DNA of 63,813 nucleotides, counting the filler, from Folioceros fuciformis (lineage: Eukaryota): the NCBI GenBank assembly GCA_049999805.1. It is 9 parts of 9 records of this genome, joined end to end, with 100 filler letters (N's around TTAATTAATTAA, not from the genome) between each part and the next. Parts side by side here need not be neighbours in the genome. Positions count along the whole stretch, not along the records: positions 1 to 11,168 come from JBNGIO010003999.1; 8 more parts are not named here. One strand, given 5' to 3'. Below are positions 8,095-11,168 of this stretch, one piece after another (positions within the stretch are counted from its first letter, which is position 1; each line of letters begins with the position of its first letter). The notes under the pieces are model-generated. The model had not been told where the DNA came from. It saw only the letters and a program-made list of their open reading frames with translations, and did no database searches. The position numbers and the translations under genes were made by a program.

Positions 8095-11041
8095 CTAGCC
8101 GTGAGCCCAAACGTGAATTGCATGATTTAGTTGTGTGGTCATGGTATTTAAGCTCTCATGCAGCCATTTCACAAATTGATGGGAAGCTTCTTCATCAGTC
8201 AAATCAAGTAAAAGTGATTCTTTCACATACATCACATCTTCTGGTTTAGAAATTTCAGGGATTCCACTGGATATCATCTACATATTATCATTGATTTCAA
8301 TGTATGACTTGCACATATTTCCAAAACCATACGTACTTATTAAAAAATATATATTGTTTAAATTTTAATTACATGATTTTGATAAATTTTGACATACCAA
8401 TGCCAATAGATTTAATATCAAACTTGCAGTTTTCCTAATTTTATTGAAAGCTTCTGAGCACATAAACTCAAACATTTTAAATCTTCTATCCTCGATTCCT
8501 CCCATAAGATATGCATAATCCGGAGTGAACTGTCAAATCATGACTCTCATCTTAGCTGAACCATGGCCAAACGTCAAAGCATGATTAATGCTTTGTAAAA
8601 TAATATCCATTTTACCACAAATCGAGCACGTTCTCGTTTAATGCCAAACTTAGACTTGAAATGGCCGAGGATATGGCCAAAGTCGATGTCTGAGTGGATT
8701 TTTGGTAAATATGTCAAGGTCATATGTCAAATATAGTACAGGGTTTGAATAGAGGCTAATCCTCCCCACATGTAGGAAAGAATAGCTAGATGGATACGAA
8801 AGTATTCGCCATTCTTTTTTAACATTATATTATCATTATGTCTGTCACCGATGCCTAATATGCATGTGGCCACACAATAAGCTGAGCATGATTTCATGAA
8901 GTTCTCTATAGCTTCTGCGTATTTGTTTCCTATCGAGTTGATAATTGAACTGATTAGTAGTGACTAAAAACAAATACAAATAGAACATGTGGAATACTTG
9001 TGTAATATGTACCCGACTTATTATGTGCCATAAGCCAATTTGCAAGAGTATCTTCTTTAAATGCGGCTGTTCCTCCTCCCGCTTCCTAATTAAGTTCATG
9101 CTTCTATATGCTATATAAATAGGGACCTCCTCTAGAAATGAAAAACATATACTCCAACACGGAAGCGGACACTCACTTACATGGAGGCGAAAATAAATAA
9201 TGTGAGTTTTTTTTAAAAATAAAATAAATTTAAATTGTTACCTTACATATGTTCGAGAGAGTTTCAGCATTTTGAACAATTTCCAACATTCCACTATTTG
9301 AGCCTGTCGCTATGCATCGATAAATATTCATTTTCATCTCCATGCCGTTCTGGGACCATATCTGCTTGTACAACAAGTAAAACTATTAAAGAAAGACTCT
9401 ATCATTTTATGTAAATATATCTATGGGATAAATGTATGCAATTTACATATGTCATTCAAAGCTTGTAAGTAATTTCAAAGCTTGCCTTGTCCATGATAGA
9501 AAGAATTTGGAGTGCTAAAATATCTTGACGAAGATCATCCCCAGTCTTAAATAATATATAAATAATATCATTTTTTTCTTCTTGGTGCAAAGCAATTTGT
9601 TGTTCATGTGCTACAACTCTTTTGAATGCTAACCATAAAGGAACCTTTTTAGAGTCCATAAATTTACAACGCTCCAAATCGAGTCCGCAAACAATCAATC
9701 TAATAAAATAATGAGTTTCATCATTTTTCATACCACAAAGAATGTCAGCACAAATAAGTAAAATAAATTGTTATAAATTTGATGAAATAAATAAATAAAT
9801 AACTCACTCACTCACTCACTCACTCACTCACTCACTCACTCAGGGTCGATTGGTAGAGAAATGGGTTTGTCAAATTTTATTGCTTCTAATGTAGCAAACA
9901 TTGTAGTTAAACGTTCCTCTCGCTGTTTTAGGTGCCTTATAGTCTCGGCTAGCTCAATCAATGTGGTCACCATTTTCTCTTGTCTTCGCAATGCATCTTG
10001 AAATGGTGGAGTGCAATGTTTGTTGAATAGTGTCAAAGCTTGTTCGAAGACGGAATGAAAATAGACATCTTGGAAACGAGCCTGCACATCAAGTTTCTTA
10101 ACTTATAAGACCTTCAAAGGGTTTCCAATAACTATGCAAACATTTTAAAACTGGAATAAATTATCATCATCTCCTTACTTTACAGAACTAGTTTTATTAC
10201 CTTACATCTAACCTAAATTGTTCCTTTTTTTTTTTAATCTAGAAAATCTTTAATTATATATATATGAATAATTCTCTATATATAGATATATGAGTTAAAG
10301 ATATATAGCCCTAGGTGGGTGGCTTCGGTCACCTTTGTCCCACCCCTTTCAAGTAGATATGTTTCCATATTGTTTTTCTCAAGTAACGGAGCAATATTTT
10401 ATATCTAATTATATTTGTATTTTATGCTTTTTCTTTTGGGAGCCCAATGCATTAGCAATATATATATATATATTGAAACAAGTAGGAATATGATAATATT
10501 CATGGAGAATTGATTTATTTTATAATGATTTTATTTTTATATATATTTAAATTATTACATTACCTTAAGATGCCAATAAAGTTGTTGTCCTATGGACCAA
10601 CTTGATATGGCCCTTTTGAGAAGAAAATGTAACAAGGAAGAGTAAAAATTTGGCTCGTATTGCAATGCCTGTAAAATAAATAAAGCAAGCTTGTTTTATC
10701 TAAGAAAGGGAAGACTGCATCCTACACACATTTATGCACTTATGCATGATCACACTTATGCATGCTCTATAGAATATTGGGGATTAATTGTAATAGAAAT
10801 TAAGTACTTGGACGAGTTGTATTAGTATCATTAAAATCTCTTGGTTTGATAAAGCATCTAAGTGTTGTATGGCATAGTTTCTTATCAAAAGGTCTCCAAC
10901 ACGAGGTTGTAATAACTGGACATAACATGCGTATATAAATTAATTAAAGTACTATATTTATATGATGATGATTATTATTATTTATAAGATTTTACTTGCA
11001 ATGCTTGAAAAGGTGATGGCGGCTGCCAAACTTGCAATAAT
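8095..11041 (-). CDS. PI3K: Phosphoinositide 3-kinase catalytic subunit, class I-like (helical + kinase domains; 5' part cut off by scaffold end)
   Basis: Eleven exons: 10996-11041, 10808-10915, 10564-10668, 9840-10081, 9486-9699, 9242-9361, 9013-9085, 8798-8929, 8616-8689, 8398-8529, 8095-8277. They splice in phase into about 475 aa with no internal stop. Motifs: [78 protein letters not shown]-terminal [13 protein letters not shown]. Confidence 0.93.
9802..9841. repeat. (ACTC)10 microsatellite overlapping a PI3K 5' splice site
   Basis: Ten perfect ACTC units, read as (GAGT)n on the gene strand. Confidence 0.95.
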
Positions 11042-11168
11042 CTGTTTGGAAATGAAATGTTTGTTAGCCAAGTTTTAGACACACACTGGGGGCGTCATGA
11101 AAAAAAAAACGAAAAAAAAAAAACAATGCTTGAGATTCTCATACATGCTATTTTACAAGCTGACCTAT

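Follow-up and report, generated by a model that had tools for sequence, protein, structure and literature searches.

A partial class I-type phosphoinositide 3-kinase gene with green-algal relatives in a plant-type genome assembly

Does a plant-type genome hold a gene for a class I-type phosphoinositide 3-kinase (PI3K), and does that gene belong to the genome in which it was found? The question is raised by positions 8095-11168 of a 63,813-nucleotide stretch of DNA from the Folioceros fuciformis assembly GCA_049999805.1 (hereafter the window, meaning the whole stretch), where the original prediction had placed an intact, intron-rich gene of this kind. In the passages of the literature on which we draw, plant genomes contain no PI3K other than class III (Brown and Auger 2011, PMC3024228), and class I and class II PI3Ks are placed in the last eukaryotic common ancestor and held to have been lost in Archaeplastida (Philippon et al. 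2015, BMC Evol Biol 15:226, PMC4617754). One exception alone is given in those passages: Selaginella moellendorffii has a gene for a class I catalytic subunit, and the six genes that flank it have their best matches in plants; retention, transfer and contamination were put forward to explain it, and contamination was rejected by the authors (PMC4617754). The explanation that we favour for the locus studied here, with moderate confidence, is that the window holds the 3' part of a real, splice-competent class I-type PI3K gene that resides in the host genome as a vertically inherited relic lost in most plants.

On the minus strand of 8095-11041, we built from the sequence a model of 11 exons (1429 nt) that gives an uninterrupted reading frame of 475 codons; the first base of exon 1 closes a split codon, and the stop TAG lies at 8097-8095. 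All 10 acceptors are AG and nine of the donors are GT; the remaining donor is GC, in the context AAG/GCAAGC (the slash marks the splice site) after position 9486 (intron 5, donor 9484-9485), so that there are nine GT-AG introns and one GC-AG intron. The introns measure 80-156 nt, with one exception of 482 nt, and are AT-richer than the exons (GC content 0.28 versus 0.37). From 5' to 3', the parts of the gene are:

11165-11168, minus strand: last 4 bases of a putative upstream exon, at the scaffold end, with a GT donor at 11164-11163
10996-11041, minus strand: exon 1, helical/PIK domain; weak tblastn match to P0169
10808-10915, minus strand: exon 2, PIK domain; PF00613 positions 83-118, E 2.1e-6; also matched by tblastn
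10564-10668, minus strand: exon 3, PIK domain; PF00613 positions 119-153, E 2.3e-8; also matched by tblastn
9840-10081, minus strand: exon 4, helical-kinase linker; no Pfam match alone, aligns gap-free to homologues; donor in a (GAGT)n run
9486-9699, minus strand: exon 5, kinase N-lobe with the ATP-site Lys motif and an 11-residue lineage-specific insert; the GC-AG intron follows
9242-9361, minus strand: exon 6, kinase domain; PF00454 positions 28-67
9013-9085, minus strand: exon 7, placed by alignment to homologues; motif in frame
8798-8929, minus strand: exon 8, catalytic loop GIGDRHNDN with a clade-specific Cys just before it; PF00454 positions 122-163, E 8e-15
8616-8689, minus strand: exon 9, DFG and basic activation loop, in which a clade-specific Arg replaces Pro
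8398-8529, minus strand: exon 10, kinase C-lobe; PF00454 positions 190-229
8095-8277, minus strand: exon 11, C-terminal helices and stop TAG; the protein ends where its class I-type relatives end

Three checks on this model were independent of the choice of splice sites, namely Pfam, tblastn and end-to-end alignment. When exons were scanned singly against Pfam, six of eight matched, and in colinear profile order (PF00613 at 83-118 and 119-153; PF00454 at 4-27, 28-67, 122-163 and 190-229), exon 4 and the last exon having no match when scanned in this way. Searching the whole window by tblastn with six homologues returned matches only within 8101-11046, in order. Residues 1-474 of the spliced product align to the C-terminal ends of full-length PI3Ks (E 1e-124 to 1e-155), with no block missing at any exon junction and with a single insert, the 11 residues inside exon 5. 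The 11 exons, roughly 475 amino acids and absence of stops that had been claimed for the locus are thus borne out by the splice model and by all three checks, and the five motifs cited with that claim all lie in minus-strand frames. An alternative splice between exons 7 and 8 (acceptor 8941) was dropped because the chosen splice matches the homologue length. At the donor of intron 4, where a (GAGT)n/(ACTC)n microsatellite (9790-9840) begins exactly, there are several in-register GT sites, and the frame is kept only by the first. Five metagenomic PI3K fragments (P0009, P0010, P0013, P0014 and P0016) end at the position of intron 5 and run on into Val directly after the MD[KRG] codon; this common reading at the same codon suggests that the position of intron 5 is old and common to eukaryotes.

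At its 5' end, the gene appears to run off the scaffold. The contig opens with ATAG/GT at 11168-11163, and the AG together with the first base of exon 1 makes an Arg codon, in phase with an Arg found at that column in 5 of the 9 homologues printed in the alignment. An in-phase upstream donor near 11164, as had been proposed, is therefore plausible. Position 11168 is the true end of the scaffold, and the tblastn search with six homologues found no N-terminal exons elsewhere in the window, in keeping with the earlier view that the N-terminus lies past the scaffold end.

By its sequence, the window protein is a class I-type PI3K catalytic subunit and not a Vps34-like (class III) enzyme, because its ranking against the PDB, both of its loops and its C-terminal end match the class I type. 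Specifically, for two exons compared with the PDB, the 60 top-ranked matches, out of 106 for one exon and 133 for the other, were all p110 isoforms (gamma, beta, alpha and delta), with no class III chain among the best 60 of either exon. The protein has a PIK (helical) domain followed by a PI3/PI4-kinase domain, as seen both in the colinear Pfam matches and in the alignment, and its catalytic residues are intact (the ATP-site Lys motif, the DRH..N loop and DFG). The catalytic loop G[ILV]GDRH..N occurs in all 72 rows compared, that is, in the 71 retrieved relatives with the loop and in the window protein. A DFGH.LG loop is present in 62 of these 71 relatives, nearly all with a basic K.K/KRE run, and the activation loop of the window protein, DFG with a basic K.K...KRER, has the pattern of most of the 62. 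The protein ends 148 amino acids after the start of the catalytic loop (146-157 in most full-length relatives), and the alignment reaches the last residues of the relatives, with no C-terminal extension such as the PX-C2 of animal class II enzymes. The near relatives in our trees and searches are all class I-type; some are annotated as phosphatidylinositol 4,5-bisphosphate (PI(4,5)P2) 3-kinases or carry a Ras-binding domain (RBD) and a C2 domain.

These results also bear on whether the gene could be an ordinary class III PI3K (Vps34), or a phosphatidylinositol 4-kinase (PI4K), misread as class I. Vps34 is like the window protein in having the PIK accessory and PI3/4-kinase domains, and nothing beyond these common Pfam domains (PF00613 and PF00454) speaks for a misreading. 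In contrast, the loops of the window protein are class I-type, the best 60 PDB matches of each of the two exons are all p110 chains, its named near relatives have PI(4,5)P2 3-kinase annotations or RBD and C2 domains, and its activation loop and C-terminal end are as in the 71 class I-type relatives. The trees described below contain no class II, class III or PI4K sequences and are unrooted against those classes, so the exclusion of all three rests on ranking and motifs. On this evidence, we regard a misread Vps34 or PI4K as exceedingly improbable, and the assignment to the class I type made in the original prediction holds.

Which organisms carry the nearest relatives? Over all 475 residues of the product, the best match is a Logan/ENA protein (P0075; 46.9% identity, E 1e-155), and proteins of Rhodelphis, Diphylleia, Andalucia, Pelomyxa and Dictyostelium stand at 42-45% identity over the full product. 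A word-indexed search with exon 5, the most conserved exon, gave six matches, the best at 57% identity (Pelomyxa, Anaeramoeba); a search from P0075 added 120 further relatives, and JGI metagenome contigs yielded four distant loci, whose identity is 51% across the exon or 70-76% across some 20 residues. The Selaginella protein was not seen among the 6 word-search matches, the 150 listed HMMER matches or the 120 listed matches of P0075, most of which are without an organism name. One of the matches to exon 5 is a 74-residue exon-like open reading frame (P0008) on a 7.4-kb SRA-assembly contig; it begins and ends where exon 5 does and is 60% identical to it. Among the listed matches, P0008 is the only one that has LWLAFK in common with exon 5 and an insert at the same site, and it probably represents this gene in a different organism that is likewise rich in introns.

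In a FastTree phylogeny of 151 rows, the window protein falls within a 13-row clade with support 100, and a quick IQ-TREE run recovered the same clade with support 99. A careful IQ-TREE analysis of 69 rows under the LG+C20 mixture with posterior mean site frequencies (PMSF) gave the clade a bootstrap of 100 and a Shimodaira-Hasegawa-like approximate likelihood ratio test (SH-aLRT) value of 99, and gave the pairing of the window protein with P0075 values of 94 and 69. The only named members are Pycnococcus provasolii (P0198) and a cluster holding Crustomastix stigmatica (P0174/P0278), both Chlorophyta. The branch of the window protein is the longest in the tree (1.46, the median being 0.34), which leaves its placement open to long-branch error; we therefore sought evidence independent of branch length in signature residues. 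We counted as a signature column any in which a residue class is common to at least 10 of the 12 clade rows and occurs in no more than 10% of the 138 rows outside the clade. There are four such columns, and the window protein has the clade residue in three of them: a Cys immediately preceding the catalytic loop (all 12 clade rows, none of the 138 others), a Lys or Arg replacing Pro in the activation loop (12 of 12, 1 of 138 others) and an aromatic residue in a C-terminal helix (11 of 12, 0 of 138 others). In the fourth column, its residue is unlike both the clade and the remaining rows. Moreover, an approximately unbiased (AU) test, for which the Dictyostelia/Archamoebae group was picked after the tree had been seen, rejected the union of the window protein with that group (difference in log-likelihood 34.1, p 0.0176). 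Of the protist or amoeba contaminant raised in the original prediction as a ground for doubt, the amoebal version is not what the tree points to: the protein stands apart from the amoebozoan clade tested and joins a clade with green algae. That this clade includes green algae speaks for retention within the green lineage rather than for contamination by an amoeba.

The full-length members of this clade have the architecture PH-(RBD)-C2-PIK-kinase: of the 8 scanned, 5 have PH, 3 have an RBD above the cut-off, and every one has the C2, PIK and kinase domains. Proteins of this family (P0168-P0176, P0078, P0198 and P0278) are abundant in marine metagenome assemblies, one 90% cluster having n=171, and their named members are only two prasinophyte-grade green algae. 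When the window protein is set against Pycnococcus (P0198) and Crustomastix (P0174/P0278), it is alike in its clade, its three signature residues and its C-terminal end, and differs in that identity is only 43-49% and that the window gene has 10 introns, the 11-residue N-lobe insert and the longest branch. Compared with the class I enzymes of Amoebozoa (Dictyostelium, Pelomyxa) and animals (p110 alpha, beta, gamma and delta), it has the same helical and kinase core, the catalytic loop, the DFG with K.K..KRER and an end right after the kinase domain; unlike them, it is at 42-45% identity, its union with Dictyostelia/Archamoebae is rejected, and its clade relatives carry an N-terminal PH domain. 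Animal class IA enzymes have an N-terminal adaptor-binding domain instead.

Is the sequence that of a working gene or of a decaying one? The match to the family consensus falls with column conservation (0.84, 0.53, 0.44, 0.38 and 0.14), and this gradation argues for selection over most of the history of the gene and not for uniform decay; the pattern of divergence is shaped by selection. The protein keeps 98 of 117 near-invariant residues, a smaller share than in any of the 150 homologues compared, whose minimum is 0.886 and median 0.973; so low a count would fit relaxed constraint, and recent relaxation or a shifted function may have left its mark on the sequence. The gene could accordingly be a dying or truncated copy that is resident in the genome, an unexpressed fragment without its N-terminal half or under relaxed constraint that makes no lipid product. 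The low count of near-invariant residues, the longest branch in the tree, the absence of the N-terminal exons from the window and the repeat-rich unplaced scaffold all point in this direction. However, 475 codons are free of stops over 11 exons with every splice site intact, the ATP-site Lys motif, DRH, DFG and the basic loop are retained, the substitutions avoid conserved columns, and the contig simply stops at the scaffold end with an apparent upstream donor. We consider a dying copy unlikely.

Does the gene reside in the host genome? It lies on the first scaffold of the window (1-11168), where a 100-N gap splits a copia contig (1-7327) from the 3.7-kb PI3K contig (7428-11168). The left contig carries a degenerate Ty1/copia element, recognised by its Pol_BBD, gag_pre-integrase, rve, SH3_retrovirus and RVT_2 domains, and the remaining long frames of the window are mostly copia pieces. 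Two further features of the scaffold are needed here:

7441-7640, no strand: high-copy dispersed repeat with a run of T at its end, located on the PI3K contig 3' of the gene; contig depth, summed per bin, is 75-312, versus 2-13 on the gene
7328-7427, no strand: 100-N scaffolding gap between the PI3K contig and the decayed Ty1/copia contig

Two DNA runs labelled with the organism (X1 and X2) hold 0.86 and 0.77 of the sampled words of the PI3K contig, and their contigs are identical to the window over 6300-11168. Contig depth, a coarse figure, is 4.2-7.8 (X1) and 5.1-12.9 (X2) on the PI3K contig, and 10.4 and 13.4 on the copia contig of the same scaffold. Coverage of 7428-11168, which had been singled out for checking, is therefore not aberrant but of the same order as that of the copia contig in both runs. 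The repeat at 7441-7640 occurs in many variant contigs of the DNA runs, with loose ends at 7624-7639, and was not found elsewhere in the window. Similar depth, together with a high-depth repeat on the same contig, argues for one genome. Both the AT-richness of the introns and the presence of a GC-AG intron are consistent with a plant, though neither is exclusive to plants. We hold it reasonably probable that this is a resident green-lineage gene.

In a third run of the same sample (X3), each contig over 9047-9424 departs from the window either by C>T changes alone or by G>A changes alone, a pattern that looks like bisulfite-converted DNA of that sample; because all the listed differences are conversions, this segment looks largely unmethylated. 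This run adds nothing on the question of residence. As to RNA support, no RNA run appears among the listed runs that contain words of the contig, and the one run guessed to be RNA covers only 31 bases of the repeat at 7441-7640.

Several observations weigh against a resident, vertically inherited gene, in addition to the long branch and the low count of near-invariant residues. The gene is partial and unplaced, and the link of its 3.7-kb contig to plant-like DNA is a scaffolding gap only: no Logan contig bridges 7328-7427 with 31 letters on both sides, and no repeats common to the PI3K contig and other scaffolds of the window were found at E 1e-3. (A joint from 7298 to 7450 was not counted as a bridge, its shorter side being 24 letters and lying in repeats.) X1 and X2 are one sample from one study and may be the sample that was assembled, so the parity of depth is not independent evidence; three other runs with the same species label, which are small, hold next to none of the words. 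No exon 5 orthologue above 63% identity was found by HMMER among 1.84 billion representatives (551 matches, 150 listed), no land-plant name appears among the best 120 matches of the nearest relative, P0075, and 10 of the 12 clade partners are metagenome or SRA-assembly proteins without an organism name. Finally, the one other non-transposon gene of the window, a GT92 glycosyltransferase, matches Marchantia at only 28%.

Much of this would be expected of a contaminant, that is, of an unsampled, intron-rich and AT-rich green alga or protist that was co-extracted and mis-scaffolded beside the copia contig. The contig is short and on an unplaced scaffold, with its gap not bridged; no plant proteome searched holds a close relative; the named clade partners are all unicellular algae; the runs that hold the contig are a single sample; and GC content is 0.29-0.36 on the PI3K contig, below the 0.43-0.47 of the neighbouring contig. 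Set against this are the depth, which in both runs is comparable in magnitude to that of the plant-like contig, the repeat of high summed depth on the same contig and an identity to sampled algae of just 43-49%. The green algae that one would expect to find on plants are, for the most part, rich in GC. In addition, Selaginella shows, in the passages cited, that such genes can sit among plant genes (PMC4617754). A contaminant is, in our judgement, a rather unlikely source, though one to be taken seriously.

If the gene is resident, it may still have been acquired horizontally, from a green alga or protist, instead of coming down by unbroken vertical descent. Transfer is one of the three hypotheses that Philippon et al. 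put forward for Selaginella, and it would suit both the long branch and the patchy distribution in plants, the gene being absent, in the passages cited, from all Archaeplastida surveyed save Selaginella (PMC4617754). However, the window gene has ten spliceosomal introns, at least one of them at a position common to the genes of other eukaryotes; it sits at the base of the clade and is not nested beside a donor, and no donor-like close relative was found. We think transfer quite unlikely, more so than decay or contamination. The Selaginella gene, compared here by its published description in the cited passages, is like the window gene in being a class I-type catalytic gene in a plant-lineage genome to which the same three hypotheses apply; it differs in being set among six plant-like genes, whereas the window gene is tied to its surroundings by a scaffolding gap only (PMC4617754).

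Beyond the first scaffold, the window is an artificial chain of unplaced scaffolds. Eight spacers of the form N44-TTAATTAATTAA-N44 (11169-11268, 21283-21382, 31440-31539, 42613-42712, 49344-49443, 55167-55266, 61130-61229 and 62469-62568) carry stops in all six frames, and adjacency across them therefore carries no meaning. The GT92 glycosyltransferase frame (32615-34402, minus strand) is intact over 595 codons, with an N-terminal membrane anchor and a GC content of about 0.57; the database search at E<=1e-3 returned one relative alone, the Marchantia paleacea protein at 28% identity, and the frame is oddly isolated for a plant gene. So weak a match does not place the host, although it hints at a poorly sampled and perhaps non-angiosperm lineage. 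Rfam and tRNA scans of the window found nothing.

How might the enzyme act, if it is indeed a resident relic inherited vertically, as proposed for Selaginella? The basic activation loop is tied to the choice of PI(4,5)P2 as substrate. The 475-residue product comprises a helical/PIK domain and a complete bilobal kinase domain, and, as a member of a green-lineage clade whose full-length proteins are built PH-(RBD)-C2-PIK-kinase, it probably had or has an N-terminus like that of its relatives, with PH, perhaps RBD, and C2. This N-terminus would bring the enzyme to membranes, where the basic activation loop would allow 3-phosphorylation of PI(4,5)P2 to phosphatidylinositol 3,4,5-trisphosphate (PIP3). 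Of the suggestion that this lineage has a PIP3 branch, a class I-type gene with green-algal relatives now stands; PIP3 signalling itself would be a reading of the loop sequence only. A further-reaching reading is possible, and we offer it tentatively: an ancestral PH-domain class I-type PI3K of green plants, marked by the Cys before the catalytic loop and the Lys or Arg in the activation loop, may have been kept in prasinophytes and, functional and expressed, in this land-plant-type genome, so that PIP3 synthesis would be patchily retained in embryophytes. PIP3 is not known to have been detected in plants. Plants have retained PTEN as well as proteins with PH domains, and which 3-phosphoinositides these bind is a matter of debate.

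Part of this has been described before. A class I PI3K in Selaginella is already published in the passages cited (PMC4617754), and P0198, the Pycnococcus protein, is annotated at NCBI as 'phosphatidylinositol-4,5-bisphosphate 3-kinase catalytic subunit', so the novelty claimed in the original prediction is reduced in part. In the literature searched, we found no account of a green-lineage PI3K clade with the PH architecture and the signature residues, none of a further plant-type genome, and no paper that pairs 'class I PI3K' with green-algal or bryophyte names.

The value of the finding is capped for now by a gene that is partial, unplaced and unusually divergent, and only a candidate for residence and expression. 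If the gene is resident, it would represent a second plant-type genome with a class I-type PI3K, tied by tree and signature residues to green algae, and would turn the Selaginella oddity into a case of ancestral presence and repeated loss. It would also provide a concrete enzyme for testing PIP3 synthesis in the green lineage, and its importance would become high should the gene prove to be resident, expressed and a source of PIP3, or the host prove to be a seed plant.

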